This document shows, piece after piece, positions 22,657 through 57,950 of a stretch of 64,000 nucleotides of DNA. A program made the position numbers and the translations under genes. The stretch lies in contig JAHQWK010000030.1 of NCBI GenBank assembly GCA_029856145.1, positions 9,261 through 73,260 of the forward strand, written 5' to 3'. Each line of letters starts with the position of its first letter. Positions within the stretch are counted from its first letter, which is position 1. The notes below the pieces were generated by a model that was not told the origin of the DNA, did not search any database, and worked only from the letters and a program-made list of their open reading frames with translations. This stretch comes from Promethearchaeia archaeon (lineage in GTDB: Archaea > Asgardarchaeota > Lokiarchaeia > Sigyniarchaeales > SOKP01).

Positions 22657-23640
22657 ATTAGAGCTGCTGTTATTGAAGATATCCAAAAATTAGTATATAA
22701 GGAGGATTATCCAAAACCTATTCCGGGTCCAGAGGAAGCCTTGGTTAAAGTTCATTACTGTGGAATTTGTGGAAGCGATATTACAAATTTCAAGTATAAA
22801 ATGTATAATTTTCCATTAATAATGGGACATGAAATCACAGGTGTCGTTGAAGAAATTGGAGAAAATATTTCGAATGTAAAGGTGGGAGATAGAGTTATCT
22901 GTGTGAACGTATCACTTGATGTTAGCCAAGGTCAATTAAAAGGGATGGGTATGTTTCAAGATGGGGGTTTTGCTGAATATGTAAAAGTTCCAAAGATATC
23001 TTTATTTCCAATACCTGCAAATACTACAATTAAAGATGCTGTAATGGTAGAAACATTTGCATTAATAATGAGAGCTTTTAAACTTTCGAAAATTGAGAAA
23101 GGGGAAAATGTGCTTATTATTGGAGGCGGAAATGTTGGGTTAGCAGCTCTCAAGACATTATTAATTGAAAAAAGTCCTAATTATGTTGTTGTAGTTGAAC
23201 CCAATGAGTTTTTAAGGAAAGAGGCTTTAGCAATGGGAGCAACTGATGCGGTTGGTACAAGTCGAGCTAAAGTAAAAAAGGCTACTAAAAAGCTTGGAAC
23301 ACCTAATTTTATATTTGATTGTGTTGGAAATGAAGAAACAATATCTAATGCTGTCAATTTCATTAAAAAAGGCGGTACGATCCTACTAGAAGGAATTCAT
23401 AAAGGAAGCATAACATTCCCTTTGTTTATGTTAAATTCTAAAGAGGTCACCTTGAAAGGATGTCTAGGTCATGATCGAGATGACATAATAGCTGCTATTG
23501 ATTTGTTTGCTAAGAATAAAGTTGATGCTAATGAATTTATTTCTGAAGTGATTCGTTTAGAAGATATGCAGAAAACATTTGAAAGATTTCTAAAACCGAG
23601 TGGTCGGAATTTTGTTAAAATTTTAGTCGATATCAAGTAA
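22657..23640 (+). CDS. Zinc-binding (MDR) alcohol/polyol dehydrogenase; probable AUU start
   Basis: CGICGSD, GHE, GGGNVG. The frame extends upstream of the tracked TTG to (I)RAAVIEDIQKLVYKEDYPKPIPGPEEAL, the normal MDR N-terminus. In-frame TGA at 22642 and no in-frame ATG/GTG/TTG before 22741. Confidence 0.85.
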   Translation: MRAAVIEDIQKLVYKEDYPKPIPGPEEALVKVHYCGICGSDITNFKYKMYNFPLIMGHEITGVVEEIGENISNVKVGDRVICVNVSLDVSQGQLKGMGMFQDGGFAEYVKVPKISLFPIPANTTIKDAVMVETFALIMRAFKLSKIEKGENVLIIGGGNVGLAALKTLLIEKSPNYVVVVEPNEFLRKEALAMGATDAVGTSRAKVKKATKKLGTPNFIFDCVGNEETISNAVNFIKKGGTILLEGIHKGSITFPLFMLNSKEVTLKGCLGHDRDDIIAAIDLFAKNKVDANEFISEVIRLEDMQKTFERFLKPSGRNFVKILVDIK

Positions 23641-23778
23641 TTTTTTACTCGAAATTATCTTTTTTATGATTTTAATGTAATGATGAGAAAAGATATATAG
23701 ATTAAAAAACAAGCAATTATTTCTGAAACTATTGCTTAATATACATATTATCAAGATTAACCTCTATGTAAGATCATC

Positions 23779-24735
23779 ATGTCATTTAAAGGGATACAGA
23801 ACGCTTATAAGAGAATTAAATCACATGCTAACAAAACCCCAGTAATGACATCTAGCACGTTAAATAAAATAACAAATGCTAAAATCTATTTTAAGTGTGA
23901 AAACTTTCAGAAAGTAGGTGCTTTTAAGTTCCGCGGAGCTTTTAATGCATTAAGTATGCTTACAAATGATCAAAAGAAGCGTGGTGTTATAACACATTCC
24001 AGTGGAAATCATGCTCAAGCTGTTGCCTTAGCAGCATCAATTTTAGGGATTGTTGCGACTATTGTAATGCCAAAAGGAGCCCCGAAGAACAAAATAAATG
24101 CAACAAAAGGATACAATGCTAAAATTGAATTTTGTGAGAATACACTCGAAGCGAGAGTTCAAAAAACAGAAGATATAATAAAACAAAAGAAACGTATTTT
24201 AATTCATCCATATGATAATGATACTATTATTAATGGTCAAGGAACTGCGGCTTATGAATTAATTGAAGAGGTTAGTAAATTAGATATTGTCATTACTCCA
24301 CTTGGAGGTGGAGGTTTATTAAGTGGGACAGTTATCGCTACTAAAGGTTTATGTCCAAATGCAAGAGTTATTGGAGTTGAACCATCATTAGCAGATGATG
24401 CGCTTAGGTCACTTAAAGCGGGTTATATCATACCAAGTACCTATCCAGATACTATAGCTGATGGTTTACGTACTTCTCTTTGTGAAAGAACATTCAATAT
24501 CATTCGAAAAAATGTTGATGATATAATAACTGTTTCTGAAATGGAGATAATCGAAGCAATGAGATTTCTCTGGGAGCGTATGAAGATTGTCGTAGAACCT
24601 TCAGGAGCAGTTCCATTAGCAGCTATATTATCAAAAAAAGTCTCAGTAGAAAGTAAAAAGATCGGAGTGATTTTGAGTGGTGGCAATATTGATGTTGAAC
24701 CTTTCTTTCAATTATTAGAAAAAAAAATTGTATGA
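23779..24735 (+). CDS. PLP-dependent threonine/serine dehydratase (serine racemase-like)
   Basis: KCENFQKVGAFKFRGA, SSGNHAQ, GGGGLLSG, VEPSGA, SGGNID. Confidence 0.93.
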   Translation: MSFKGIQNAYKRIKSHANKTPVMTSSTLNKITNAKIYFKCENFQKVGAFKFRGAFNALSMLTNDQKKRGVITHSSGNHAQAVALAASILGIVATIVMPKGAPKNKINATKGYNAKIEFCENTLEARVQKTEDIIKQKKRILIHPYDNDTIINGQGTAAYELIEEVSKLDIVITPLGGGGLLSGTVIATKGLCPNARVIGVEPSLADDALRSLKAGYIIPSTYPDTIADGLRTSLCERTFNIIRKNVDDIITVSEMEIIEAMRFLWERMKIVVEPSGAVPLAAILSKKVSVESKKIGVILSGGNIDVEPFFQLLEKKIV

Positions 24736-24738
24736 ATT

Positions 24739-26013
24739 ATGTTAGACTCACTAAGTAAATTATTTAAAAACATAGAACTTTCTTGGATTGATTCAGTAGC
24801 TAATATTGATAGTTCTGATGAGTTTTCTGATCTTATCTCAATATTTCCAAACTTAGAGAGAATTTTTCAAGACGCTCGAGAGAAAAATAGAGATGAAATT
24901 CAAAGAACAATAAGACACATATTTAGATCGTATAAAATTTTCTTTTTGATAAAAAGTGGAAAGTTCTCTCATGAAACTCTTTCACAAGAATCTATAACTA
25001 AAATCCGAGAAAAAGTTTTGAATCAACATTCTAAAAACCAGTTAATCATCCCAATAATTTTAATGTATCATGATATTGGAAGATATGTTGATAATAAAAA
25101 ACATCCATATCATAGTTATAATCTTATATCACGCATGGATTTGCTTGAACTATTTGAGCTTTCAGATATCGAGAAATTACTTATCAAAAATATAGTCCAC
25201 TATCACTTACTTATTGCTACTATATATACCGGAGAATCTACTTTTTATGGAATCTATTCACTATTTAATGATCCTGAATTCATTAAGCTCCTCTCATATG
25301 AAAATATCATTAACAGATTCATTGATCTCTTAGAAGTTTTTACATATATTGATATTCTTGGCTACTATTATACTAAAATCTTTGACCATTACATTAAGTA
25401 TTATGATGAGATCAGTTCAAAATTGAAGATGATTTTGAGGTTTTTACCAGATAAAGAGTTGGCTTTAAAGAAAGCAAAAGAATATTCACATGAATGGTTA
25501 GAATGGAGGCTTGCAGGTGCCCTTAGAATATTCCAATTTGTTGAAACAAAACCACATTTAACCAAAGAATTTTATTACAATAAATTAAAAGAAAGTATAA
25601 AGGAATGTGGTAATCAACTACTCAGTGAACTCAATTGGGATTCATTAAAAGATCAATATTTAACCCATTCTTATAAAATTCAAATGAGATATTCTCTAGC
25701 TTTGTTAATGATTCTAGCATTTGGGAGCTTTCAACGCATGGGATTAAAAATTAATACTGGTGTTTCATACAAATTAATTTTATTTTGGACTCTGCTTTCT
25801 AAAGAAGTAAAATCAAGATCCGGAAATAATTCTAAATCTCTATGGAACGTATTTTTAGAGGGCATACCTCATTGGTCAAAAATTGATAAATCATTTATTG
25901 AAAAAATAAATGAGGACAAGATCGAAATTATAATTCATAACGCCAACCATGAATTTGATGAAACTAAAGGAGAATTTACCTTATACTTAGATTTTAATCA
26001 AGTTGCCAATTAA
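24739..26013 (+). CDS. Hypothetical protein with HD-domain-like motif
   Basis: RHIF...YHDIGR...HPYHS...VHYHL...YID pattern; long ORF. Confidence 0.6.
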   Translation: MLDSLSKLFKNIELSWIDSVANIDSSDEFSDLISIFPNLERIFQDAREKNRDEIQRTIRHIFRSYKIFFLIKSGKFSHETLSQESITKIREKVLNQHSKNQLIIPIILMYHDIGRYVDNKKHPYHSYNLISRMDLLELFELSDIEKLLIKNIVHYHLLIATIYTGESTFYGIYSLFNDPEFIKLLSYENIINRFIDLLEVFTYIDILGYYYTKIFDHYIKYYDEISSKLKMILRFLPDKELALKKAKEYSHEWLEWRLAGALRIFQFVETKPHLTKEFYYNKLKESIKECGNQLLSELNWDSLKDQYLTHSYKIQMRYSLALLMILAFGSFQRMGLKINTGVSYKLILFWTLLSKEVKSRSGNNSKSLWNVFLEGIPHWSKIDKSFIEKINEDKIEIIIHNANHEFDETKGEFTLYLDFNQVAN

Positions 26014-26169
26014 ATCATCCAATTCTTCAAAGCTTTCCGATTACACAAATTAATTAATTACATTTTCTTCAAACATTTTTTACTTTTTTTTCTAGTTAAA
26101 CTTTTAGAATAAGAAGGATTTTTTTCACTTGAAAAAAGAATAATTATTTTCTTTAGAACAACAATTGGA

Positions 26170-27219
26170 TTGGTTGCATTGTCGGATATATTTAATAGAT
26201 CAGTGGAAAAAAACCCCTCTGAGTTTTTATGCGTTGTATATGTCATGTTTTTCGATGAAAAACGTGGACAGGTACCTTTATTAATGTATCCTGACGACAG
26301 ACTTAGAAACGATAAAAGATACATGCGACCAGTAAATTATCATCCGGTCTGGTTTTTAGAGACTGAAGAACTTGATCACATTGATTTGGAATATAAAGGG
26401 TATGCATTTTTTGGGAAAAAATTTCTTGTAAAATCAGAAAGACCAAAACGTAGGGCTGGACTTGAGGAGGAAAGTCCAGAGACGATCGTTATTATTGTTT
26501 CTCTTCCTGTTGAAATAGAGATTTTTGGTGATGATCTCATTAAAGTATTGACGGAAAAATTACGTGAGAACTTCGAAGATCAGGTATCTGACGTCATAGA
26601 AAGCGAGATTGCTTCTGAAACTGTGATAAAGACACCGAAAATTCAAGAACGTATATCTAAAGGAACTAAAATTAAGGTATTTATGAGGGAATTAATTGAC
26701 AAGACTATTAAAGGATATTTTTCAAAAACTATTGAAAAAAGATCTGAATCCCCTTCTCTTAAAAACCAAAAAGCAATTTCTTATTTCTCTCTAAAGGGTT
26801 TTGAGTTTTCTCCTCTTAGTAGTTTAAAAGGAGAAAGTGGATTTGCTGATGTAGATCTTTTTGATCCTATAAAAAAAATAAGTGAAGAGCTTGCAACCAA
26901 ACCTTTACTTTCAGTTACTAACATTAATTATATTGAGAATAGCCAAGAACTTGAAATTACAGTTCAAAATAATATAGATAAGGAATTGAAAAATTTAGCT
27001 ATAACAATAACACATATCAAAGATTATTTTGAAAAAGAAGTAATGCATCAAGAGGTTAACTTTTGGTTCCCTCAAGAGGAGCTCTTGTTTGTTACACCAA
27101 TAGTTCCTCATATTGATGAATATTTGTTTTCTATTAAGAAAGAAGATGATAGTGGGAATGATCTAAAGGTCTTTACCCAAAGAATTGATTTAAAATTAAT
27201 TAATAAAATAACAAGTTAA
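26170..27219 (+). CDS. Hypothetical protein with an N-terminal uDENN/longin-like motif and a C-terminal beta-rich (Ig-like) domain
   Basis: CVVYVMFFDEKRGQVPLLMYP; C-terminal LEITVQNN..KELKNLAITI. The ORF is solid; the domain call is an inference. Confidence 0.55.
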   Translation: MVALSDIFNRSVEKNPSEFLCVVYVMFFDEKRGQVPLLMYPDDRLRNDKRYMRPVNYHPVWFLETEELDHIDLEYKGYAFFGKKFLVKSERPKRRAGLEEESPETIVIIVSLPVEIEIFGDDLIKVLTEKLRENFEDQVSDVIESEIASETVIKTPKIQERISKGTKIKVFMRELIDKTIKGYFSKTIEKRSESPSLKNQKAISYFSLKGFEFSPLSSLKGESGFADVDLFDPIKKISEELATKPLLSVTNINYIENSQELEITVQNNIDKELKNLAITITHIKDYFEKEVMHQEVNFWFPQEELLFVTPIVPHIDEYLFSIKKEDDSGNDLKVFTQRIDLKLINKITS

Positions 27220-27221
27220 AG

Positions 27222-27710
27222 ATGGAAAGTATAATGTCAAATGATGAAATTAAAGAAGAAGATATTATAATCAGGAATTATCGTACTTCAGATTATCAAG
27301 TAACTTTAGAAATTTTAAAAGAGCTTCAGGATCAGTATGATATCGGCTTTAGTGAACAACAATGGAGAGAATCTTCAGGATTAAGGCAATTTAAACCAAA
27401 TCTAAAGCGAATCACATTAATTGCGGAATTAAAATCTACAGGTCAAGTTGTAAGTATGGGAATGGTTGAAGCAGTAAAAAATACACTTGGACGCTATATT
27501 GGTTATTTAGACAATTGGGCTACTAAAAAAGAATTTATTGGTAAAGGTATAGGTAAACTTTTAGCAGACAGAGCTACTCAAATTCTCGAGTCATGGGGTT
27601 GCGATTCTATCAGAATTAACCTTGCATATAAATCAACAAAAAAATTACTTGATGTTTTTGGTAAAGCAGGTTTTCAACCAATTATTACCATACTTGAAAA
27701 AAGGTTTTAG
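27222..27710 (+). CDS. GNAT-family acetyltransferase
   Basis: IIIRNY, YLDNWAT..EFIGKGIGKLL, KAGF. Confidence 0.85.
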   Translation: MESIMSNDEIKEEDIIIRNYRTSDYQVTLEILKELQDQYDIGFSEQQWRESSGLRQFKPNLKRITLIAELKSTGQVVSMGMVEAVKNTLGRYIGYLDNWATKKEFIGKGIGKLLADRATQILESWGCDSIRINLAYKSTKKLLDVFGKAGFQPIITILEKRF

Positions 27711-27714
27711 GTTA

Positions 27715-29091
27715 TTAAAGAGTAAGTTGTTCGAATCTAGCCTGGAAAAACCGCAAATGTTTAGGCTCAAAAACCATTTTCAAGCCAGGTATGGTATCTC
27801 TCTTCTCATAGAGTCTAGCTATAGAATCCGCGATATATTCCATATGCGTATTAGTATAAACTCTACGTGGAATTGTAAGTCTAACAAGTTCTAATTTTGG
27901 AAATATATTATCACCCGTTTCTTTATCTCTGCCTTTAGAGACGGCCCCTCTTTCCATAGTCCTAACAGCGGAGTCTTCATAGATGGCAGCTGAAAGAGTT
28001 TGTGCTGGCCATTGGTCCCGTGGAAGGTGAGGCAAGAATTTTAAAGCATCAAGAAAGACACCATGACCACCAATTGGTTTTACTATAGAAACTCCCGCTT
28101 TCATCAATAACTCGCCTAAATAACGCACTTGATTAATTCGATATTTCAGATACTCATAATCAGCACCTTCCCTTAAGCCACGAGCAACGGCTTCCAGATC
28201 TCGGCCCGCAAGCCCACCATAGGTATGAAGCCCTTCAAATAAAACAACCATCCCCCTCGTATAATCGAAAATATCTTTACTATGGGTTGCTAAAAAGCCT
28301 CCAATATTCACTAGACAATCCTTCTTCGCACTGTATATACACCCATCCGAATAGCTCATCATTTCTCTTAGTATATCGATAATGGGCGTACTTTCATAAC
28401 CTTTTTCTCGCTCTCTAATAAAGTAAGCATTTTCACTTGACCTAGTGGCGTCGAATATTATTTTTAGTTTATATTCATCACAGTATTCTTTTAATTTTCT
28501 CAAGTTCTTCATTGAGACTGGCTGTCCAGCTGCCATGTTAACGTTTAATTCCACGTTTACAAACGCAATCTTTTCTGGTCCATACTCATCAATTAGATTT
28601 TGAAGCTTTTTAAAATCAATATCTCCTTTAAAAGGATTTTCATTCTCAGGATCATGAGCGTCATCAATAATAACATCAAGCATGGTTCCTCCTGCTAATT
28701 CTACATGAGCTTTTGAGGTCGTGAAATACATGTTTCTAGGAACAATTTGTCCAGGATTAGTAAGATGACCATACATTAAATGTTCAGCACCACGTCCTTG
28801 ATGAGTAGGTACAACATATTTATACCCTAAAACATCTTGTATTGCTTTTTCAAGGTTATAAAAGTTTTTACTGCCTGCGTATGCCTCATCTCCGAGCATA
28901 ATGCCTGCCCATTGGTTATCAGACATAGCAGTAGTTCCAGAATCTGTTAATAAATCAATAAATACATCATCAGAATAAAGTAAGAATGTATTAAATCCAG
29001 CTTCTCTAATTGCTTCTTTTCTCCTCTTTTCAGAGGGTATTTTTACATGTTCGATCATCTTAATCTTAAAAGGTTCAACGGGACCATTCAC
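27715..29091 (-). CDS. tpl: Tyrosine phenol-lyase (beta-eliminating lyase family)
   Basis: IDLLTDSGT, GDEAYAGS, THQGRGAE, SAKKD. TPL-type residues NTFLL, NMYFTT and LRFF rather than tryptophanase FDTT/LRHF. Confidence 0.85.
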   Translation of the reverse strand: MNGPVEPFKIKMIEHVKIPSEKRRKEAIREAGFNTFLLYSDDVFIDLLTDSGTTAMSDNQWAGIMLGDEAYAGSKNFYNLEKAIQDVLGYKYVVPTHQGRGAEHLMYGHLTNPGQIVPRNMYFTTSKAHVELAGGTMLDVIIDDAHDPENENPFKGDIDFKKLQNLIDEYGPEKIAFVNVELNVNMAAGQPVSMKNLRKLKEYCDEYKLKIIFDATRSSENAYFIREREKGYESTPIIDILREMMSYSDGCIYSAKKDCLVNIGGFLATHSKDIFDYTRGMVVLFEGLHTYGGLAGRDLEAVARGLREGADYEYLKYRINQVRYLGELLMKAGVSIVKPIGGHGVFLDALKFLPHLPRDQWPAQTLSAAIYEDSAVRTMERGAVSKGRDKETGDNIFPKLELVRLTIPRRVYTNTHMEYIADSIARLYEKRDTIPGLKMVFEPKHLRFFQARFEQLTL

Positions 29092-29377
29092 AATAATTCT
29101 CCCTCAAAATTTTTTTTATTTAATTAGATAATTATATCACAACTGAAAAATATTTCTGTAATGCCTTACCCACTTGTTTCCCCTATAAATACGATAATGA
29201 CCAGTATTAACAATTGAGGTAAAATTCAGAAGAATAGAACTAGAAAACAATAATTACTTATGTGTAAAATTTTGATTATTAAATTTCTCACTCTGATTTA
29301 ATGAAATATATTAATTTTAAAAAATTCAAAATTATAATATAAATTAATTTTCAAAATAAAAAGGGAGAAAAAATAAA

Positions 29378-30814: not shown

Positions 30815-30829
30815 AAGAGGTGAAAAAAA

Positions 30830-32005
30830 ATGGTTAGAAAAGGAATTGCAGATAAAATTGCTATAATAGGGTGCGACGCAACAAAATTTGGTGAATTATG
30901 GGACAAAAATCAATATGATTTACTCTTCGAGGCAGTTCAAGGTGCTAATAAAGATGCGGGGATAACTAAGGATGAGATAGATGCGGTTTGGGTTGGAATA
31001 TTTTATTTCTTTACAGGACTTTCAGGTGCTACAGTAGAAGATATTTTAAGATTAGATGGTAAACCAATTACTAGAACGGAAAATTATTGTGCTTCGGGGA
31101 TGGATGCTTTCAGAAATGCGTGCTTTGCTCTTGCTAGTGGTGCCTATGATGTTGTTCTCGCTTGTGGTGTGGAAAAACTAATGGATGAGTCCTCTAGTGG
31201 ATTACCCGGCTTTGATTTATTTGGCCATCCAACATTACCTATACCTTCTGCCCCTGCGATGTTTAGCATGGCAGCAACAAGATCTTTTCATGAATGGGGT
31301 TGGAGTAAGGAAGATTTAGCTCGAGTTGCTGTTAAAAACCACGATAACGGATCTCATCATCCTAAAGCACATTTTCGAAGACCAACTACAATTGAAAAAG
31401 TAATGAGGGATGTTATGATTGCGGACCCATTGGGGCGTAGCGATTGTTGTGCTATGAGTGATGGTGCTGCAGCACTGATTTTAACAAGAGTAGAAGATGC
31501 TCCAAGTTATGCTCATTCAGATGACTACATTGTTGTAAAAGCGAATGCTATATCTTGTCAAACAAATACTCCTTGGTATCAGCCATCCCATACCTTCACA
31601 AAATTCCCAGCAACACTAAAGGCAGGGGAAATGGCCTATAAAGAAGCAGGGATTACAAATCCTAGAAAACAAATTGATTGTGCAGAAGTCCATGATTGTT
31701 TTACAATTACTGAACTTTTAAACTGTCAAGATTTAAAGTTTTGCGACAGTGGAATGGCAGCTGAAGAATTAAAGAATGGTACATTTAATTGGGATGGTGA
31801 AACTGCTGTTAATCCCTCTGGAGGCTTAAAAGCCTTCGGACATCCAATAGGTGCTACTGGCTGTAGAATGTTACAAGAAGTAACAAAACAACTTCAAGGA
31901 AGAGCAGAAGGAAGACAAGTGCCAGATGCTAAAATAGGATTAGCACATAACCTTGGTGGAGCATTTTGCGTTTGTAGCGTTAGTATTTTAGGTCAAGCAG
32001 ATTGA
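30830..32005 (+). CDS. Thiolase (acetyl-CoA acyltransferase, SCP2/archaeal type)
   Basis: ENYCASG, GVEK, SDGAAA, EVHDCF, NPSGGL, GHPIGATG, HNLGG. Confidence 0.94.
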   Translation: MVRKGIADKIAIIGCDATKFGELWDKNQYDLLFEAVQGANKDAGITKDEIDAVWVGIFYFFTGLSGATVEDILRLDGKPITRTENYCASGMDAFRNACFALASGAYDVVLACGVEKLMDESSSGLPGFDLFGHPTLPIPSAPAMFSMAATRSFHEWGWSKEDLARVAVKNHDNGSHHPKAHFRRPTTIEKVMRDVMIADPLGRSDCCAMSDGAAALILTRVEDAPSYAHSDDYIVVKANAISCQTNTPWYQPSHTFTKFPATLKAGEMAYKEAGITNPRKQIDCAEVHDCFTITELLNCQDLKFCDSGMAAEELKNGTFNWDGETAVNPSGGLKAFGHPIGATGCRMLQEVTKQLQGRAEGRQVPDAKIGLAHNLGGAFCVCSVSILGQAD

Positions 32006-36736: not shown

Positions 36737-36748
36737 GGTTCTACCCTC

Positions 36749-37699: not shown

Positions 37700-38149
37700 C
37701 TATCTTACAACCAATACATCACATCGAGCATATTTTACAACTTTAGTCGAGACAGTCCCCAATAACACTTCTTTTATCTTAGAATGGTATCCCTTTGAAC
37801 CCAAAACTACAAGATCAAAATTCTCTTTTTCAACAATTCGTGCAATATATTCCTCAGGCGATTCATCCTCAATTAAGCGAGTTTCGGCGGGAAGTTGTGA
37901 TTTATCGAAAACCTTTTTAGTCTTTTCAAGTAAAACTTCTCCTGCTTTTTTACTAACTTCTTCAATATTACAATAAATTTTTACAGGAAGAAATGCGTCA
38001 GGATATAATGATTTTGGAAGTTTATGATGTTTTATTGAATGAAATATCACCACCTTGCAATTCCATAACTTTTGGAATTCTAGAACTTGTTCAGTTGCAT
38101 TATTGGAATGGAATGACCCATCAACGGCAAGTAAAATCTTTTTATATAT
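37700..38149 (-). CDS. Universal stress protein; probable AUA start
   Basis: (I)YKKILLAVDGS, DLVVLGSKG, LLGTVSTKVV..A.CDVLVVR. AGGTGA lies 5 nt before ATA at 38149. Confidence 0.88.
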   Translation of the reverse strand: MYKKILLAVDGSFHSNNATEQVLEFQKLWNCKVVIFHSIKHHKLPKSLYPDAFLPVKIYCNIEEVSKKAGEVLLEKTKKVFDKSQLPAETRLIEDESPEEYIARIVEKENFDLVVLGSKGYHSKIKEVLLGTVSTKVVKYARCDVLVVR

Positions 38150-38181
38150 CTTTATCACCTTGAATTGATTAATTATTAAAC

Positions 38182-40778: not shown

Positions 40779-40968
40779 TAAATATTATGTGTATAAATTT
40801 GTATAAAACCATATAATATATTAAGTATAAAGATGAAAAGAACTAAAATATTTCTTTATAAATATTTTCTTATAATTTTGAATAATTAATAATAAAAATC
40901 TAAATTAATACTTTTATATAGTATATCAATTGGAAATATTGTTATAATCATTTTTTTGGTGATTCGAT

Positions 40969-41388
40969 ATAGGAAGAAACAGACATCGACGATGGGTTAA
41001 TCAAACTCCTAATAATACTTATTTCCCTGGAGATTCACCTAAAACCCAAGATTCGATAATAATAACTGTTGCTGAATTTGAAGCTATGAGATTAAAACAT
41101 TATTTAGGCTTGAATCAGAAAGCAGCTGCTGAAAGAATGGATATAAGTCAACCTACATTTTCAAGAATTCTTGAAAGCGCTCATCAAAAAAACACCTTAG
41201 CTCTGCTTGAGGGGAAAGAAATTAAAGTCTATGGTGGGAATTTTGATTATAAGTTAAGCTTTAAGGGATATGGATGTCATAACTGTAATCATGAGTGGGA
41301 AGATCCTAATGCGTCCAAGAATGGAAAAGTTAATTGCATTAAATGTAATTCCAATAACGTATATCATCTTATTAGAGAATACATGTAG
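40969..41388 (+). CDS. DUF134-family DNA-binding protein with C-terminal zinc ribbon; probable AUA start
   Basis: (I)GRNRHRRWVNQTP...EFEAMRL..YLGLNQKAAAERMDISQPTFSRILESA; CHNCNHEW..CIKC. GGTGA lies 6 nt before ATA 40969, with an in-frame TGA at 40960. Confidence 0.88.
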   Translation: MGRNRHRRWVNQTPNNTYFPGDSPKTQDSIIITVAEFEAMRLKHYLGLNQKAAAERMDISQPTFSRILESAHQKNTLALLEGKEIKVYGGNFDYKLSFKGYGCHNCNHEWEDPNASKNGKVNCIKCNSNNVYHLIREYM

Positions 41389-43860: not shown

Positions 43861-44014
43861 TTACTAGAAAAAACTTGAAAATATTTAAATTTAACTTATT
43901 TAGATTAAAATTACATTTAATTTAATAAAAATTAAGAGGTAAACGAATATTCAAGAAAAAAAAATTCCAGATATTGATTTAAAGAAGACAGTTGAACAAG
44001 GAAAGAAAGAAAAA

Positions 44015-44821
44015 ATGGATGAATTAACGGAGAATATTAACAAAAACATGGATAAAATTAAGCACAAAATCGTTGTTATATCAGGTAAAGGTGGAGTCGG
44101 AAAAACCACAGTAGCTATAAACCTTGCTATGAGTTTAGTAAGCGTTGGATTGAGGGTTGGAATCTTAGATGTGGATATAACAGGTCCAAATGTACTGAAG
44201 ATGCTGGGTATTGACCCAAATCTTAAACCGAGGGTTGATGCTGAAAAGAAAAGATTTTATCCCGTTAATGGGCCCTTAAATCTTAAAGTAATGAGCATGG
44301 CTTTTCTCATTGAAAGTTCAGACTCACCAGTTATTTGGAGGGGTCCAATGAAAATGAGTGCAGTAAGACAGTTTTTAGGGGAGGCTATTTGGGGTGAATT
44401 AGACTATTTAATTTGTGATTTACCACCAGGAACATCAGATGAAACCTTAGATATTTTACAACTTATTCCCGACGAGAATGTTATCGTAGTTTCGACACCT
44501 CAAGAAGTTGCGTTAATGGATGCTCGAAAAACTATTAGAATGGCTCAGATAATGGAAAGAAAAGTACTTGGTTTAATAGAAAACATGTCTGGCTTCGATT
44601 GTCCTCATTGTGGAGAACATATTGATTTGTATCCCCCCGGTGGTGTAGAAAAGGCATCTCAGGATTTTGAAATTCAATTATTAGGTAAAATACCTTTTGA
44701 AGTTGAAGTAAGCCAGCAAGGTGATAGGGGCTTACCTTTTGTATTAAAATATCCTGAAAGTAAATCATCCAAAGCATTTAAAGAGACAGTAAAAAAGATT
44801 CGAGGAATACTGGAAAATTAA
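44015..44821 (+). CDS. mrp: Mrp/ApbC/NBP35 Fe-S cluster carrier ATPase
   Basis: SGKGGVGKT, VIWRGPMK, DLPPGTSD, ENMSGFDCPHC. Confidence 0.93.
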   Translation: MDELTENINKNMDKIKHKIVVISGKGGVGKTTVAINLAMSLVSVGLRVGILDVDITGPNVLKMLGIDPNLKPRVDAEKKRFYPVNGPLNLKVMSMAFLIESSDSPVIWRGPMKMSAVRQFLGEAIWGELDYLICDLPPGTSDETLDILQLIPDENVIVVSTPQEVALMDARKTIRMAQIMERKVLGLIENMSGFDCPHCGEHIDLYPPGGVEKASQDFEIQLLGKIPFEVEVSQQGDRGLPFVLKYPESKSSKAFKETVKKIRGILEN

Positions 44822-49981: not shown

Positions 49982-50121
49982 ATTTCACTTTTTAGAACTA
50001 ATTAAAAATCATTTTTCCCTCCAAAATATTCATTTTTTAAGATTAGTATTGAAAACTACATAACTAAAAGAGTTTTTAACAAACAACCTAAAAATCTTAA
50101 TTTTTCTGATCTTAAATAAAC

Positions 50122-50208
50122 TGAATAATGTTCGATTCAAATAATTATATCTAACATATCGTACGATGATATAGGCAATAATCGAATTAACTTCGATAGG
50201 TTTAAATA
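50122..50208 (+). promoter_or_regulatory. Two YGAA-N5-TTCR (Lrp-type) sites upstream of a TATA box
   Basis: TGAATAATGTTCG 50122-50134; ATCGAATTAACTTCGAT 50181-50197; TTTAAATA 50201-50208. Confidence 0.62.
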
Positions 50209-50330
50209 TTATAATCTATATATTTTATATTAGAGAAACTAAATTGTTATAAAATCAAGAAAAATAATAAATGAATTTTATTCAGATTTATAATAAAAAA
50301 AAATTTTAAATTTTAATTAATACAAACGAG

Positions 50331-50924: not shown

Positions 50925-50981
50925 TAATAATTTAAATAAATAAAATCGTTTTATTCTTCTTTTTAGAAACCTATCTTATAT

Positions 50982-51428
50982 TTAATCATCCTCAAAATGC
51001 TTTACAACTGTAAACCAAAAGTTTATTATTGAATTAATAATTCTGTAAAATTCCTTCATTTCTAAAGGTTTAATTATATAACAATTAGCATGAAGATTAT
51101 AAGCTTTTATTAAATCTTCTCTTACATCAGATACTGTTAAGATTACCACAGGAATCCTTTTTAATTCTTCATCATGTTTCATTTCTTTCAATACATCAAA
51201 ACCATTCCTCTTTGGCAAATTTAAATCTAAAAGGATTAGGTTTGGTTTACTAGCATTAGAAAATTTACCTCTCTTCTTTAAGAAATCAATCGCTTCAGCA
51301 CCGTCCCTTACAATATCTAAACTACCTACAATTTTATTCTCTTGAAGAACTTTCTTGGTAAGACGAATATCTGCAGCATTATCTTCAACGAGTAAGATTT
51401 TAGCCTTAGTTCTTTTATATTCATTCAT
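50982..51428 (-). CDS. Stand-alone response regulator (Rcp1-like)
   Basis: ILLVEDN, LILLDLNLPK, IPVVILT, AY.LHANCYIIKP. Confidence 0.93.
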   Translation of the reverse strand: MNEYKRTKAKILLVEDNAADIRLTKKVLQENKIVGSLDIVRDGAEAIDFLKKRGKFSNASKPNLILLDLNLPKRNGFDVLKEMKHDEELKRIPVVILTVSDVREDLIKAYNLHANCYIIKPLEMKEFYRIINSIINFWFTVVKHFEDD

Positions 51429-51447
51429 AATTATATACCATTATTCT

Positions 51448-52509
51448 TTATTTTTTTTTTGGAAAAATTGTAAAGAAGAAGGTTGATCCTTTACCAAATT
51501 CTGATTTTACCCATATTTTTCCACCATATCGTTGTACTATCTTCTTACATATAGGTAATCCTATACCTGTACCAGGATATTCTTCTTTAGTGTGTAACCG
51601 GTAAAAAATATTAAAAAGTTTATCAAAAAATGTTGATTCAATACCTATGCCATTATCTTTTATAGAGAATAACCACTCATCATTAATTTTTTTTACTCCA
51701 ACATGAATTTTAGGTGTTTCTTGGCTTCGGAATTTTATAGCGTTACTAAGTAGATTCTGAAATAATTGTATAAATTGAGTTTTATCAACATTTAGTATCG
51801 GCATTTTGTCATGAGTTATAACAGCACCACTTTCTTTTATTGCCTCTTGTAAGTTAAATAAAGCATCTTCTAAAATCTTCTCAAGATTAGTTAATTTTGA
51901 AGGTTTAGCATGTGTAGTGATCCTTGAATATGATAATAGATCTTTTATAAGAGTATTCATTTTTTTTGCGCCGTCTGTAATAAAGTGAATGAATTCTTTA
52001 CCTTCCTTATTTATTTGATCTTGATATTCTTCTTCAAGAAGTTGAGAAAAGCTTACAATTGCTCTTAAAGGTTCTTGTAGATCATGAGATGCTACATAGG
52101 CAAATTGTTGTAAATCTTCGTTAGAACGCCTTAAATCCTCCATTATTACATTGAATTCAATTTCTCTTTTTGAAATATGCTCAGATAGGAATGATACTAC
52201 TATTCCAACAATTATTAATGAGATAGCTCTCAGAAAATTATTAATGGTTTCTAAATTAAAAAACTCATTTTCTGGGATAAAATGAAATATAATTATTATT
52301 GCAGCTAATAAAACCGGAATAATTAAACCTTTTCTTTTCCACCATAAACATGCTAAAATTGAAGGAAAATAAAAAAAATGCGCAACTAGAATAGAAGTTC
52401 TAAGTACTACATCGAAATAATAAATTAATAAAAATGATAAAATCATTAAAATAAAAATAATTAATATTCTCAATCTCTCTTCTTTAAGTTTCAGGTTCAT
52501 TACAATCAT
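51448..52509 (-). CDS. Membrane sensor histidine kinase (Cph1-like transmitter)
   Basis: N-terminal TM helices; LQQFAYVASHDLQEPLR, NLLSNAIKF, DNGIGI, GTGIGL. Confidence 0.94.
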   Translation of the reverse strand: MIVMNLKLKEERLRILIIFILMILSFLLIYYFDVVLRTSILVAHFFYFPSILACLWWKRKGLIIPVLLAAIIIIFHFIPENEFFNLETINNFLRAISLIIVGIVVSFLSEHISKREIEFNVIMEDLRRSNEDLQQFAYVASHDLQEPLRAIVSFSQLLEEEYQDQINKEGKEFIHFITDGAKKMNTLIKDLLSYSRITTHAKPSKLTNLEKILEDALFNLQEAIKESGAVITHDKMPILNVDKTQFIQLFQNLLSNAIKFRSQETPKIHVGVKKINDEWLFSIKDNGIGIESTFFDKLFNIFYRLHTKEEYPGTGIGLPICKKIVQRYGGKIWVKSEFGKGSTFFFTIFPKKK

Positions 52510-52860
52510 TTCTCATCTTTTATTACATATTCTTTAATATGTGATTTTTTTAAAACGAATTGGTAAAAAATCATAGGAAAAAATCATAATTAATAAGAAT
52601 ATTATCCAATATAAAATAAATTTTATCGAACAAAAATATCACTAATTATAGTCTAGAAAATGAGCTTTCAGTTTAAAAATTAGAAAAACAATAATAGTAT
52701 TCTTTATACATTTAAAAATTTTATAACTAAAATGATTCATTTGAATTATAGATAAAATAATTATTTATATTAAACTGAATATTATTCAGTATAAGGAAAA
52801 TAGAGATGGAAAAAATTTTAATTTTTAAAATGTCCTAAAAACATTTTCGGGTGAACAAAT

Positions 52861-53760
52861 ATAGAGAATAAAAAACTCGATATCCTACTAATTGAAGATA
52901 ATACTGCTGATGTGCGCCTTATTGAAAAATTATTAAAAACTTCCGCAGAATTCAAATTTGATTTAGAAGCTTATCCTAGACTTTCAGAAAGTCTGAATCA
53001 TCTTAAGACTAAAAACTTTGATATTATTTTATTAGATTTAACTCTACCAGATAGCGAGAGAGAATCTACTTTAGAAAGAGTTTTAAGTTTTACTGTTGCA
53101 ATTCCTATAATAATTTTAACTGGATTAGATGATAAGGAATTAGCCTTACGATCTCTTCAAAAGGGAGCCCAAGATTATATAGTAAAAAGTGAACTTAATG
53201 GACAAAGTTTAACACGAGCTATCTTATATGCAATTGAACGACACAGAATTGAAAGCGAAAAAGAAAGAGATAAGGCGTTTAAAACGCAATTTGATGAAAA
53301 AGATAAAGAAATTCTTAATTTTCTACAAGAAAATTACAAAATCTCTTATAAAGATTTAAGTAAAAAAGTAAATCTAGCTGCTAGTACTATTCATAATCGA
53401 GTACAAAATATGATAAAAGAGGGAATCATAAGAAAATTTGATACACTCGTAGATCCATTTAAAGTTGGATATGAATCTATAGCTATTCTTGGTCTATCTA
53501 TTGATCCAATGAAATTGGATGAAGTCGCAAAAAGGCTAACCGAATATGATGATATACAATTGGTTGCATCATCAACTGGAGATCATAATTTATTAATAAA
53601 AATTATTGCTAAGGATGAAAAAAATCTCTGGAGATTTATTAATGATGAGATTAAAATATTAGATGGAATTCAACTACCAATGCGTGTATCAAGTTTTATT
53701 GATATTTTTAAAATGACTCAGAAAATAAATTTTGATATTGGAAAAAATAATAAATCCTAA
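52861..53760 (+). CDS. Receiver domain fused to an Lrp/AsnC regulator; probable AUA start
   Basis: The frame extends to ATA 52861: (I)ENKKLDILLIEDNTADVRL, restoring the REC acidic pocket. In-frame TGA at 52852 within the SD GGGTGA. ILLDLTLPD, ILTG, DYIVK, then a full Lrp HTH and ligand-binding domain. Confidence 0.9.
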   Translation: MENKKLDILLIEDNTADVRLIEKLLKTSAEFKFDLEAYPRLSESLNHLKTKNFDIILLDLTLPDSERESTLERVLSFTVAIPIIILTGLDDKELALRSLQKGAQDYIVKSELNGQSLTRAILYAIERHRIESEKERDKAFKTQFDEKDKEILNFLQENYKISYKDLSKKVNLAASTIHNRVQNMIKEGIIRKFDTLVDPFKVGYESIAILGLSIDPMKLDEVAKRLTEYDDIQLVASSTGDHNLLIKIIAKDEKNLWRFINDEIKILDGIQLPMRVSSFIDIFKMTQKINFDIGKNNKS

Positions 53761-55103
53761 GGGAAAATTCCTCTCAATTCAATTGCTTTAGCTAATCTTG
53801 ATATAGCAATCATATATGAGGCTATTCTTAGACTAGCATTCTTTTCTTTTGATAGATTATAAACATCCTCGAATGCACTAACAAGAATATTTTTTAATTC
53901 CTGATTAATTCTTTCTAATTTCCAAAAATAGCTATGAATATCTTGAATGTATTCAAAATACGAGACACATACGCCTCCAGCATTAGCAAGAATATCAGGG
54001 ACTACAATTATCCCTTTTTTCTCTAGAATATTATCTGCTCCTGGAGTAGTTGGACCATTAGCACCTTCTAATATAATTTTACAATTTATTCTATTTGCAT
54101 TTGATCGGGTTATTTGGTTTTCTATTGCAGCAGGAATTAAGATATCACATTTTAAAGTAAGTATATCTTCATTACTGACGAATTTATAGCCTTTACCTTG
54201 AAAATCTTTTAAATAATTACTTTCATCTCTCCATTTTAATAATTGGTCGATATTTAATCCGCCTTTGGCATATAAACCTCCACTAATGTCTGACACAGCT
54301 ATAATTTTACATCCTTTCTCATATAAAATTTTTGCAATATTTCCTCCAACATTGCCAAATCCTTGAATAACAATATCCTGGGGGTTTAGATCTAAATTAA
54401 TTTTATTGCATAAAGCTTCGAGTACAAAAAATAATCCCATTCCAGTTGCAGATTCTCTCCCAACTGAACCTCCTATTTCTATTGGTTTCCCCGTAACGAC
54501 CCCAGGAACAGCCCTCCCTTTATGCATCGAATAAGTATCCATAATCCACGCCATGATCTGAGGATTTGTATTTACATCAGGAGCTGGAATATCCTTATCG
54601 GGGCCTATAAAATTTATGATTTCTGAAGTGTATCTCCTAGTTAGCCTTTCTAATTCCTCTTTTGATAATTTTCTGGGGTCAACACATACACCACCTTTTG
54701 CTCCTCCAAGAGGTAAATTTAATAAGCTACATTTCCAAGTCATCCAAATAGCCAACGCTTTAACTTCATCAAGGTTAACATTTGGAGCAAATCTAATACC
54801 TCCTTTACCAGGACCTCGAACTGTTGAATGTTGCACTCTGTAACCCTCAAATATCTTGAGTGTTCCATCATTCATCTTAATTGGAATAGAAACAATTAAA
54901 GAACGTTCAACTCTTTTGAGAAATTTCTTAATATTATTATTCAATCCCATCTTTTCGGCAACAATGTCAATTTGTTTTTTTGCCATTTCAAATGGATTTG
55001 TTTCCATTAATAATTCTTCCTTGACCGTAACAGAAACGTCAGCAGCAACTAAAGCTTCGGGATAAATTATTTTCATTTGTTCCTTTTTCTTATTTTCTAA
55101 CAT
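53757..55103 (-). CDS. gdhA: Glutamate dehydrogenase (Glu/Leu/Phe/Val family)
   Basis: GPGKGGIRF, GGAKGG, DIPAPD, VVTGKP, QGFGNVG, GANGPTT, PDILANAGGV. Confidence 0.95.
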   Translation of the reverse strand: MLENKKKEQMKIIYPEALVAADVSVTVKEELLMETNPFEMAKKQIDIVAEKMGLNNNIKKFLKRVERSLIVSIPIKMNDGTLKIFEGYRVQHSTVRGPGKGGIRFAPNVNLDEVKALAIWMTWKCSLLNLPLGGAKGGVCVDPRKLSKEELERLTRRYTSEIINFIGPDKDIPAPDVNTNPQIMAWIMDTYSMHKGRAVPGVVTGKPIEIGGSVGRESATGMGLFFVLEALCNKINLDLNPQDIVIQGFGNVGGNIAKILYEKGCKIIAVSDISGGLYAKGGLNIDQLLKWRDESNYLKDFQGKGYKFVSNEDILTLKCDILIPAAIENQITRSNANRINCKIILEGANGPTTPGADNILEKKGIIVVPDILANAGGVCVSYFEYIQDIHSYFWKLERINQELKNILVSAFEDVYNLSKEKNASLRIASYMIAISRLAKAIELRGIFP

Positions 55104-55106
55104 TTT

Positions 55107-55270
55107 CGAATAGAATTCAATTTCATTCTTTTCAATTTAATTGATTAGATAATATCTCTTCATTTTATATATGTCATTTAATGCTTATAAATGTGTCGAA
55201 CAATATCCTTTCATCAGTTTATTAAAGCGAAGAGAGTTCGAGCATCCCTATATCAAACGAATCTAATTCA
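55107..55270. promoter_or_regulatory. Three YGAA-N5-TTCR sites in the gdh upstream region
   Basis: CGAATAGAATTCA 55107-55119, CGAAGAGAGTTCG 55228-55240, CGAATCTAATTCA 55258-55270. Confidence 0.62.
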
Positions 55271-55349
55271 ATTAAGCATATTAATCTTTATCATGATATT
55301 TTAGCATACCCAACTAATAAAAAAGATAAAATTCTTAGAAGATAAGGGA

Positions 55350-55577
55350 TTAAAAGATCTTAAAGATTTTACAAAATAGACTTATAATTTCAGATAAAGC
55401 TTTTTGAAAATATCTTCGAGCTAATGTAATATTTTCTCGAGAAGGAGAATAAATAACACCTCCTGGAACAAGTGAAATCAAATGAACAGATCTTCCGCCA
55501 AATAATTCATTTATTTCATTTCCAACTTTAATTAAATCATATAAATTAGATGTTAATTGAGGATTATTATTCCTCAT
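55350..55577 (-). pseudogene. Internal fragment of a group 3 [NiFe]-hydrogenase large subunit
   Basis: GNEINELFGGRSVHLISLVPGGV matches the conserved GGR.IHP....PGG segment. Only 75 aa, with no CxxC Ni-binding motifs. Confidence 0.65.
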
Positions 55578-55609
55578 GAGTTTTTAAATTTCAACTTTAA
55601 AAAAAAAAA

Positions 55610-57289
55610 TTAATAAGAAATTTTTATTTCCCTTCCAAATAGTATTTTTCTAGCTTTCTCAAATGCTTCATTATAATCAAAAATTTTTTTTCCTTTAGTA
55701 GTCGCTGCTTCTTTTAGAATTGAAGCCTCAACTTCTGATTTAAGAGTACCAACTGCTAATGCTCCTGTTCCAAATATAGCTGGAAAAATTTCCTTATTAT
55801 TATCTTTAGGCTTTAAACCCTCAATTCCATAAGGAGGTACTAAATTAATATCAATTACAATTTTGTTTTTTAATTTAATCATGAGTTCTTTTGATAATAC
55901 TTGAACTCCTACTGCGGCTAAGGACCATATTATCTCAGCGTTTTCTATAATCTCGAATTTTTGATCGTCATTAACAGCATATATACCCTTTATTAAGGTA
56001 GCATCTTCTCCAGCTTCAGTAGATAATTCTTCTGCTAAATTCTGAATAAAATTCTTACTTGATTTATTCCATGTTTCAACAATAAAAGTTTTACATTTTA
56101 ATTTTGCTGACAAAATGGCAGCAATTCTCGCAACTGGTCCTGCTCCTAAAATTACAACTTTCTTTCCTTTTAAATCTCCGATGTTATGCATCCTAGCAAA
56201 CTCCATCGTTTTTGCTACTATGCAGGGAGCGGTTGTGTGTGAACCTCTCGGGTCAATAATTATAGGGCATTCAAATGGGGGGACTAATGAATTTATTACT
56301 TCTTTAGCAATTTTATATCCTTCTTTTACATTAGACCCCCCAACAAAAAATGAGGTAGGAGCACTAGGTTTGCGAGAAAAAATAGCATCTTGTACTAATT
56401 TTGGTACTTGATCAGCAGAAATTTTACTAATTGGAATTACAATATCAAATCCTGCGTCATAAGCCATATTAATATCAAAAGGGGAAGCATTTTCATCAGT
56501 ATCGAAAAAATAACAAATTTTCTCTAGTTCTTCTTTTTTTTTAATTTTAATTGGGGTTAAATTAATTGTTTTATTAAGAATACTTTTTATCGTAGAATTT
56601 TCAATATTAGTAGCAATTTGAGAAATCCTTTTAATTTTGATTTCTTCGATTTCTACTCCTAATTCTTCAGCGTATTGTTTTATTCCATCAAAATGTTGTA
56701 CGTCACATATAAAAAAAGCTGTTAAATTTTTACTTTTTGTCTCTCGTGCTTTATTCATAATTTTCATCATCATCCACGCTTCTCTAACTTTAAATCTTAC
56801 TTCATTTTCTTGTTCTTCATATTCTTGTTGTAGGTATTGTTTCCATAATAAAACTCTTTGAAATTCAAAATTATTTTTAAGAAATTCTTCTCTTAAATTT
56901 GAGTTGGTATTAATTACATTCTTTAGTTGCTTAATAAGTGATCTATGTTCATCTAAATTAGCATTAAGATAACCTTCTGCATTTTCAGAAATATCGATTA
57001 TTTGATATGGAATATTATATGTTCTAAATAATACTGAGATTGGGTCATCTTGTGATATAACCTCTTCCCATCTACTTCCTTTTTCTTCGACTGCAAAATT
57101 AGGTTGATATTTTTCAATAATACTCTCAATTAATTCAAGATACTCTTTTGAGATTAAATGTAAATTCCAAGCTAAATCATGCTTTTTTTCAGCTGGACCT
57201 TCAAACCACCAATCAATTGGAAATTCACTTTCAATTAATATTATTTTTAATTTGCTCCTCTCTAGTGGTATTAATTCTAAAACTTCCAT
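55610..57289 (-). CDS. NAD(P)-dependent methylene-H4MPT dehydrogenase (MtdB/MtdC-like) fused to an unknown ~250-aa N-terminal domain
   Basis: SPFDINMAYDAGFD, VQDAIFSR, VPPF, DPRGSHTTA, GAGPVA, DINLVPPYGIEG, GALAVG.LK. Confidence 0.85.
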   Translation of the reverse strand: MEVLELIPLERSKLKIILIESEFPIDWWFEGPAEKKHDLAWNLHLISKEYLELIESIIEKYQPNFAVEEKGSRWEEVISQDDPISVLFRTYNIPYQIIDISENAEGYLNANLDEHRSLIKQLKNVINTNSNLREEFLKNNFEFQRVLLWKQYLQQEYEEQENEVRFKVREAWMMMKIMNKARETKSKNLTAFFICDVQHFDGIKQYAEELGVEIEEIKIKRISQIATNIENSTIKSILNKTINLTPIKIKKKEELEKICYFFDTDENASPFDINMAYDAGFDIVIPISKISADQVPKLVQDAIFSRKPSAPTSFFVGGSNVKEGYKIAKEVINSLVPPFECPIIIDPRGSHTTAPCIVAKTMEFARMHNIGDLKGKKVVILGAGPVARIAAILSAKLKCKTFIVETWNKSSKNFIQNLAEELSTEAGEDATLIKGIYAVNDDQKFEIIENAEIIWSLAAVGVQVLSKELMIKLKNKIVIDINLVPPYGIEGLKPKDNNKEIFPAIFGTGALAVGTLKSEVEASILKEAATTKGKKIFDYNEAFEKARKILFGREIKISY

Positions 57290-57584
57290 TTTCTCTCAAA
57301 CACCTCTCATATTTTTTTATAATGTTTAAATTTAAACTTCCTTTGTAGATTTTCCTATATCATATTATGTTTCTATTGCATAAAAACTTATGTATTCGAA
57401 AGTATTAATACAATAAAACGATCATCAAATGATCACTAATCTACAATTTTTAAGTTAAACTTTTTCTTTTGAAATATAAAAGTGAGATTTATTAGATTTA
57501 GAGACACATAATCTATAGCGCTAATTTATTGAAAAATCAATGTATCTTTACAAAATAAATTTTTAAAAAAAGAGGTGATAAGTC

Positions 57585-57950
57585 ATAACCCAAAATGAAA
57601 AACATATTTTATATGTACAAACTTCCCATGATCCAGAACGCCAATATTCACCATTAGTTCTAGCTCAAACAGCTAAAGCAATGGATATCAAAGCAACAGT
57701 CTACTATTTAGGTACCGCATTAAAAATTTTAAAACCAGGAGAAGCTGATAAAATTAAATTAGGTAGTTTTCCAAGTGTGAAAGAAATGATTGATAAAACT
57801 ATGAATATGGGTATTGAAATCTTAGTTTGTGAAGCTTCAAAAAGAATGTTAGGTTTGGAAAAAGTGGATTTAATTCCCGGTGTTAAGATTGTCGGTGCTG
57901 CTACTTTAAATGATTTAGTTTTAGAGGCAGATGCGACTCAATGGTTTTAA
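57585..57950 (+). CDS. DsrE-family protein; probable AUA start
   Basis: The frame extends to ATA 57585: (I)TQNEKHILYVQTSHDPERQYSPLVLAQTAKAMD...VCEAS...IVGAATL. SD GAGGTGA lies 6 nt upstream, with an in-frame TAA at 57579. Confidence 0.82.
   Translation: MTQNEKHILYVQTSHDPERQYSPLVLAQTAKAMDIKATVYYLGTALKILKPGEADKIKLGSFPSVKEMIDKTMNMGIEILVCEASKRMLGLEKVDLIPGVKIVGAATLNDLVLEADATQWF

Follow-up and report, generated by a model that had tools for sequence, protein, structure and literature searches.

At which codon does translation begin in a gene whose Shine-Dalgarno (SD) motif is well placed and whose N-terminus is conserved, when ATA or ATT stands where ATG, GTG or TTG would be expected? The question is raised by a stretch of 64,000 nucleotides (nt), here called the window, which covers positions 9261-73260 of contig JAHQWK010000030.1 (C30) in the metagenome-assembled genome (MAG) GCA_029856145.1 of a Lokiarchaeia-type Asgard archaeon (Promethearchaeota). 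This source genome (G000; other G numbers denote related genomes) comprises 3.55 Mb in 32 contigs at approximately 30% G+C and is 97% complete. Five genes of the window had been flagged from the letters alone as starting with ATA or ATT at normal SD spacing, and a relaxed, SD-driven choice of start codons had been proposed for the lineage. With ATA, ATT and ATC summarized as ATH, comparison with related genomes indicates that the flagged genes are intact and most probably translated from AUA, AUU or AUC as genuine SD-led near-cognate starts.

Six genes with probable ATH start codons and their orthologues

Motifs, spacings and coordinates of the five sites were all right on re-examination, as were the two ATG-started genes named as sharing the same spacing (GGTGA+5+ATG at 21052 and GGTGA+6+ATG at 30830). 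A sixth case, the ParA gene, was absent from the original prediction. The genes and their SD motifs are the following.

22643-22649, plus strand: SD-like motif of the Zn-dehydrogenase, GAGATGA, spaced 7 nt from the ATT; in-frame TGA at 22642-22644
22657-23640, plus strand: Zn-dependent alcohol dehydrogenase (ADH), start ATT 22657; ADH_N at residues 24-120 plus ADH_zinc_N
37700-38149, minus strand: universal stress protein (USP), start ATA 38149; Usp at residues 2-149
38155-38159, minus strand: SD of USP, GGTGA, spaced 5 nt from the ATA and containing an in-frame GTG (38158)
40958-40962, plus strand: SD of DUF134, GGTGA, spaced 6 nt from the ATA; its TGA forms the in-frame stop
40969-41388, plus strand: DUF134 protein (putative DNA-binding), start ATA 40969; DUF134 domain at residues 2-93
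43936-43940, plus strand: SD GAGGT (AGAGGTAA) of the ParA gene; in orthologues AAGAGGTAA or AAGAGGTG, then 6 nt, then ATT
43949-44821, plus strand: Mrp/NUBPL-type P-loop ATPase (ParA), start ATT 43949
52850-52854, plus strand: SD of REC-Lrp, GGTGA, spaced 6 nt from the ATA; its TGA forms the in-frame stop
52861-53760, plus strand: response-regulator receiver plus Lrp/AsnC regulator (REC-Lrp), start ATA 52861; Response_reg at residues 8-111, HTH_24, AsnC_trans_reg
57572-57578, plus strand: SD GAGGTGA of the DsrE-like gene, 6 nt before ATA; in-frame TAA at 57579-57581
57585-57950, plus strand: DsrE/DsrF-like protein, start ATA 57585; DsrE at residues 6-118

As predicted, ADH, DUF134, REC-Lrp and DsrE have no canonical start at the conserved N-terminus and their upstream frame is closed by a stop, USP being excepted by the in-frame GTG within its SD. 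Read from the ATH codon, the Pfam domains of the five originally flagged genes are full-length. The first canonical in-frame codons are TTG 22741 in ADH (28 codons downstream, cutting the ADH_N domain), ATG 41086 in DUF134 (39 codons downstream, at a cost of 38 domain residues), GTG 52912 in REC-Lrp (17 codons downstream, with loss of the acidic pocket of the receiver) and, in DsrE, a codon 32 codons downstream that cuts the Pfam domain. It is these codons that gene finders would call, and the truncated annotations that had been foreseen would follow from them. That the proteins really begin there, or in the case of USP at the GTG in the SD, with the conservation further upstream being regulatory and non-coding or coincidental, is nevertheless very improbable. 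Two genes lend themselves to it: the Pfam domain of ParA survives a start at ATG 44015, and the GTG of USP lies in frame three codons upstream of the ATA. Against it stand the loss of 5-38 residues of Pfam domains in the five flagged genes, the receiver acidic pocket included, and the lack of an SD in front of the downstream canonical codons.

The orthologues argue in the same direction. They were sought in 40 related genomes (24 congeners and 16 members of three other families within the order) with each protein as query and alignment of the 5' ends, those of ADH being taken instead from named MAG contigs. Relatives of the genes occur in MAGs named Promethearchaeota or "Hermodarchaeota" archaeon (Loki_b32, the DZ series, LW40_87, YT_039, Hel_238_bin13 and bin108, the last a closed chromosome). 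Per gene, 13-30 related genomes again have ATA, ATT or ATC at the codon aligned with the flagged ATA or ATT, with a GGAGGTGA-like motif 5-7 nt ahead of it; ATG, TTG or GTG stands at exactly that codon in a minority of the congeners and in most orthologues of other genera. Over seven genes and 165 aligned loci, ATH was counted 117 times, ATG 23 times and GTG, TTG or CTG 17 times at the same aligned codon. An alternation of ATG and ATA among orthologues, which the original prediction had named as a check, is thus present and extends to the other codons: ATH, ATG, TTG and GTG replace one another at one position. The motifs in front of the ATH codons of orthologues are GGTGA, GGTGG or GAGGTG (in ADH GGAGATGA).

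Gene by gene, the aligned codon of ADH is ATT in 14, ATC in 2 and ATG in 3 orthologues, many of which have upstream in-frame stops; at the place of its SD, GGAGATGA, GGGGATGA or GAGTTGA is kept in 16 orthologues having ATT or ATC. For DUF134 (ATA 15, ATC 1, ATG 4), the GGTGA motif is invariant in the 16 congeners with ATA or ATC. REC-Lrp has ATA 11, ATC 2 and ATG 1, and DsrE has ATA 11, ATT 5 and ATG 4, with ATG one codon further on in six loci of other genera. In ParA the ATT is kept in 14 syntenic orthologues, a paralogue has ATG at the same aligned codon, and the two paralogues share the peptide IPDIDLK, which is encoded ahead of the first ATG (44015). In the USP family the aligned codon varies among 26 members (ATT 11, ATA 4, ATG 3, TTG 6, GTG 1, CTG 1), and relatives carry GAGGTGA or GAGGTGG at a spacing of 5-6 nt. 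The GTG within the SD was rejected as the start of USP and is best seen as an accident of the 5-nt spacing: in relatives with 6-nt spacing, which keep ATT or ATA, it falls out of frame.

The stretch between the ATH codon and the first canonical start is conserved as protein. Synonymous changes make up 32-68% of its changed codons, and four sets gave synonymous to non-synonymous differences of 93:197, 38:46, 135:64 and 120:101; because of these many synonymous differences the stretch appears to be translated, which, together with the ATG that other genera have exactly at the ATH position, is difficult to reconcile with starts further downstream. The 5-7 nt spacer between SD and start differs from the source genome at 32-54% of its positions.

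The original prediction had itself considered errors of assembly and pseudogene-like decay, and for dsrE a missing A. An explanation by assembly or base-calling error, by pseudogenes or by frameshifts from a nearby out-of-frame ATG could draw on the out-of-frame ATGs close to two of the sites (dsrE ATGAAAAA at 57595 and the ADH ATG at 22646), yet it is scarcely credible, as the ORFs are intact and under coding constraint. Error is excluded by the recurrence of the same codons in 13-23 separately assembled genomes per gene, which stem from many independent studies and have a closed chromosome among them. Moreover, an 8-kb stretch of the window was found nearly whole (85-95% of sampled words) in runs of two further studies beyond the probable source; the runs that contain window sequence are marine-sediment or subsurface metagenomes. 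The missing A of dsrE was discarded, ATGAAAAA at 57595 being specific to the source genome and replaced in congeners by CAA AAT GAA AAT, GAA AAA GAG AAA and similar sequences. A frameshift from the out-of-frame ATG of ADH was discarded as well: the frame offset varies by species, two species have TTG, and in-frame stops often follow, so that this ATG is better read as part of the SD variant. A-to-I editing of AUA to AUI was likewise rejected, since the sites that have ATA in some genomes have ATT or ATC in others.

Shine-Dalgarno dependence and extent in the genome and the order

Within the 165 aligned loci, an SD run of at least 5 nt precedes 79% of the ATH starts, 71% of the GTG, TTG or CTG starts and 35% of the ATG starts, figures from related loci that describe a trend rather than a test. 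The spacing of ATH starts is 5 nt in 25 loci, 6 nt in 71 and 7 nt in 8, the mode being 6. The 16S rRNA of a congener ends in ...GGAUCACCUCC / GGATCACCTCC, which is complementary to GGAGGTGATCC; the congener was used because the 3' end of the source genome's own 16S was not found, the archaeal 16S fragment present there being a 5' fragment at a contig end. The closed genome G022 matched the archaeal small-subunit model over no more than the final ~125 nt of the 16S (G022:C1:871810-871932), and G005 gave no match; the rRNA genes of these Lokiarchaeia may be interrupted by introns.

The genome-wide scan that had been suggested as a further check used the SD 5-mers GGTGA, GGTGG, GAGGT and GGAGG, each leading into an ORF of 100 codons or more whose frame is closed by a stop at most 15 codons upstream. 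It returned 287 ORFs with ATG, GTG or TTG at 3-11 nt, with a peak at 4-7 nt, and the peak of ATH lay at 5-6 nt. Where no canonical start occurred at 3-11 nt, ATH made up 67 of 151 codons (44%) at spacings 5-6 as compared to 123 of 870 (14%) at spacings 0-3 and 8-15 (Fisher p = 8e-16). AAA, AAT, TTA and TAT, which served as A/T-rich controls, were not enriched (28/151 vs 234/870). The excess of ATH over spacings 4-7 corresponds to ~55 genes. As only four of the six true cases of the window were recovered (ADH was missed because of its SD variant and USP because of its in-frame GTG), the real number is probably nearer to 80-90 genes, i.e., 2-3% of all genes and 15-20% of the SD-led genes, about 55 of them behind one of the 5-mers. 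Any given SD 5-mer is present in only a few percent of the genes that start at their first ATG. The codons ACG and CTG were weakly enriched at spacings 4-7 (13/305 vs 5/870, p = 5e-5), and the tolerance for one mismatch may reach beyond the third base. Examples of ACG in the source genome are C26:17682, behind AAGGTGA+6, and C6:16370, and CTG takes the place of ATH in one USP and one L21e orthologue (L121, L296).

When genes were selected independently of the SD, by a coding-like stretch of 25 or more codons ahead of the first canonical start, 81 were obtained, approximately 40 of which, judged by eye, have an SD and ATH at the 5' end of the ORF. Additionally, in 76 ORFs of at least 150 codons the first canonical start comes only after 45 codons or more, a number far in excess of the geometric decay that holds at shorter distances; that stretch is free of any 5-mer SD in 46 of these and contains an SD plus ATH in 18. 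Some of the 76 may be antisense shadows, and others may have non-canonical starts that lack a strong SD. Two simpler counts were uninformative: GGTGA-like motifs within genes overwhelmed the plain rate of SD association per codon, taken over the first 60 codons of every ORF, and raw counts of GAGGTGR-Nx-codon without ORF context did not show even the ATG peak, so that pattern counts in other genomes were dropped.

The candidate list includes ribosomal protein L21e, V-type ATPase subunit D, uS12, isoleucyl-tRNA synthetase (IleRS), an RNase P Pop5-like protein and Arf-like GTPases. In 23 congeners, L21e starts with ATA in 10, ATC in 5, ATT in 5, TTG in 2 and CTG in 1, and in none with ATG, the other genera having ATG or TTG. 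V-ATPase D starts with ATA in 11, ATT in 6 and ATC in 4 of 21 congeners (source genome counted), to which G010 with ATG is added; here the other genera have ATG, TTG or GTG. Judged from these sequences, highly expressed genes (L21e, V-ATPase D) very probably belong to the set with ATH starts. The sole congener with ATG in V-ATPase D, G010, has a decayed SD (CAGTTGT in place of AAGGTGT); apparently the strength of the codon is traded against that of the SD. The ATA of V-ATPase D stands 3 nt past the TAA stop of the upstream gene, and translational coupling may help its initiation.

Among the related genomes, a 400-kb sample of the closed congener genome G005 showed the same peak at 6 nt. Samples of 400 kb from G032 and G038, which belong to another family and have ~31% GC, yielded four ATH each at spacing 5-6, a result of low power that is treated as a hint; among these candidates are an orthologue shared by both with an ATA start and a TsaA-like gene in which the next canonical codon lies 111 codons downstream. 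No ATH signal appeared in a 400-kb sample, likewise of low power, of G033, a member of a third family with 54% GC. The habit would accordingly be common to the whole genus and at least one further family, and seems to be at least order-level in A+T-rich lineages. Taken together, the alternation among orthologues, the strength of the SD, the genome-wide excess and the second family of the order support the relaxed, SD-driven start choice that had been proposed for the lineage.

Initiation machinery and proposed mechanism

The initiator tRNA (tRNAi) gene of congeners (G018, G010, G008, G021) is canonical for archaea, with A1-U72, G29-31/C39-41, anticodon CAU, the loop CUCAUAA and an encoded CCA. 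Introns at unusual places of the tRNAi (T-arm, D-arm, anticodon loop) were seen in several Lokiarchaeia (L261, L266, L267, L249, L258, L264), and only ~25 tRNAs, many with introns, were found in the source genome by ARAGORN and Rfam.

The initiation factor aIF1 (SUI1) of the congeners itself starts with ATT in all 22 readable loci (genus g1, L140-L163). Its frame is closed by a stop 1-3 codons before the ATT, and canonical codons are absent up to the zinc-knuckle cysteines, whereas an ordinary isoleucine codon four codons further on is ATT, ATA or ATC depending on the locus. Other genera have ATA, TTG, GTG or ATG as the aIF1 start; the ATA of genus g5 (L168) stands behind GAGATGA. For aIF1 of G032 and G036, no canonical codon was seen at the expected start, and TTA aligns with the TTG of G025. 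The invariant ATT makes aIF1 a candidate for self-limitation of the infC/eIF1 type.

In the mechanism proposed here, the 3' end of the 16S rRNA pairs with a GGAGGUGA-like motif and so places the P site 5-7 nt downstream, as is evident from the complementarity and the spacings. The ordinary initiator Met-tRNA (CAU) would then be accepted although only the first two bases of the codon match, the strong SD holding the mRNA in register and offsetting the weak pairing between codon and anticodon, while proofreading by aIF1 would be tolerant of the third-base mismatch. Mutation pressure towards A+T at 30% GC would supply the changes from ATG to ATH, which would be tolerated in a subset of the SD-led genes, and in those genes ATA, ATT, ATC, ATG, TTG and GTG would interchange over evolutionary time. 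Tolerant acceptance of Met-tRNAi on AUH fits the published model of SD-led initiation in archaea, in which the initiator tRNA samples P-site triplets after SD pairing and aIF1 proofreads (PMC6237735); the P. abyssi test mRNA of that model has the arrangement GGAGGUGA+5+AUG (PMC6237735).

The ATH starts might also be real and yet depend on a specialized mechanism, such as a modified C34 in tRNAi, initiation with an isoleucine-tRNA or a lineage-specific change in aIF1 or aIF2. The modification f5C34 lets mitochondrial tRNA-Met read AUA, and the accepted codons are mainly AUH, which is the mitochondrial set; the invariant ATT of aIF1, as compared to the drifting isoleucine codon nearby, additionally hints at a factor tied into the system. 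Such a mechanism is nonetheless unlikely: the sequence of the tRNAi gene is fully canonical, and the alternation of TTG, GTG and CTG at the same codons together with the slight enrichment of ACG and CTG is a better fit to a general tolerance for one mismatch.

Several observations weigh against ordinary SD-led near-cognate initiation as the explanation. The aIF1 of S. solfataricus destabilizes complexes on non-AUG mRNA (cited in PMC6237735), and the tolerance proposed here needs explaining. The tRNAi gene was not found in the source assembly by ARAGORN with and without introns, regular expressions, a scan for GC islands or blastn with the tRNAi of g2, g7 and g1, nor did PF01253 find a match to aIF1 there; the machinery is thus seen in congeners only. 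In G010 both genes lie on one contig (C57), ~23 kb apart, and a single unassembled region may explain why both are lacking from the source assembly. Furthermore, the GTG of GGTG is in frame in the genes with 5-nt spacing (USP, uS12, IleRS), where it is a possible start as far as this genome alone is concerned. The orthologue loci share kinship and their counts are not phylogenetically independent, and the sequencing runs that contain the locus include no RNA-labelled run.

Comparison with known systems and implications

ATT, ATC and ATA are listed as initiators in NCBI table 11, and infC and pcnB of E. coli use an AUU start. The bacterial SD-led near-cognate starts resemble those described here in that a one-base variant of AUG stands behind an SD at normal spacing and is presumably read by the ordinary initiator tRNA. 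They are confined, however, to isolated genes and are of low efficiency, whereas the Lokiarchaeal starts concern an estimated 2-3% of genes, L21e and V-ATPase D included; unlike the bacterial ones, they are stable across the genus, swap with ATG, TTG or GTG, and operate with the archaeal machinery (aIF1, aIF1A, aIF2) rather than IF3. A parallel for aIF1 is offered by the AUU of infC, which encodes IF3, and by the poor-context autoregulation of eukaryotic eIF1, because in each case the gene of a proofreader has a weak start, as aIF1 does with its ATT in the congeners. Self-repression belongs to infC and eIF1, while for aIF1 the likeness is drawn from the start codon, and other genera of the order include ATG, GTG or TTG there. 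Mitochondrial initiation at AUA, AUU and AUC (NCBI tables 2 and 5) is alike in its AUH set in an A+T-rich genome. It differs in its mostly leaderless mRNAs and modified tRNA-Met: the Lokiarchaeal ATH starts depend on an SD and are thus not leaderless in the mitochondrial manner, the tRNAi gene has a canonical sequence, and within genes AUA codes for isoleucine in the ordinary way.

In the archaea, ribosome profiling of Haloferax volcanii found ~30% of the putative alternative initiation sites to be near-cognate (PMC7261190); those sites are extra or alternative ones that the authors set aside, in contrast to the sole, conserved starts of ordinary genes considered here. For AtubA of a Kariarchaeaceae (Asgard) MAG a "rare ATT start codon" has been described, an upstream ATT at plausible distance from the ribosome-binding site restoring the first beta-strand of the truncated deposited protein (PMC13394414). 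That case concerns one gene of another Asgard class, is termed rare, and comes without genome-wide or comparative analysis. Full-text literature searches yielded no systematic report, and for Asgard archaea only the remark on AtubA (PMC13394414). What would be new against this background is the scale on which ATH is used, the stability of that use, and the presence of essential genes of an Asgard lineage among those affected.

As a tentative generalization, which may well prove too broad, the Lokiarchaeia could be said to possess a start-codon dialect in which, behind a strong SD, AUA, AUU and AUC (rarely CUG or ACG) serve regularly as initiators in a few percent of the genes, among them essential and highly expressed ones, with a leakiness that would be set by aIF1 and self-limited through its invariant AUU. 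If this is true, the aIF1 loop would be the archaeal counterpart of the bacterial IF3 and eukaryotic eIF1 feedback, and the invariant AUU makes such an IF3/eIF1-like feedback directly testable in an archaeon. The lineage would moreover be a natural system for the start-codon stringency of the aIF1/aIF1A/aIF2 core, which is shared with eukaryotes, and for the trade between SD strength and codon strength.

Lokiarchaeia are among the closest known prokaryotic relatives of eukaryotes. Public gene calls of Asgard MAGs permit only ATG, GTG and TTG, and a few percent of their proteins would consequently be truncated or have inconsistent N-termini. Structure prediction, the calling of domains and signal peptides, and the comparisons of "eukaryotic signature proteins" behind arguments on eukaryogenesis would be distorted by such truncation, the affected proteins comprising regulators, ribosomal proteins, small GTPases and a tubulin (PMC13394414).

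Two further features of the window and its genome were seen in passing. Three paralogous ORFs of ~1010-1030 amino acids on the plus strand (5428-8469, 13424-16504 and 17934-21035), in two cases followed by a short ORF of ~145 amino acids, have an FAD/NAD-binding-like N-terminus (GGGIAG) and resemble repeated HdrA-like oxidoreductase modules. Finally, a selenocysteine tRNA with the anticodon TCA is predicted at G000:C8:12915-13007, which suggests that the organism probably uses selenocysteine.

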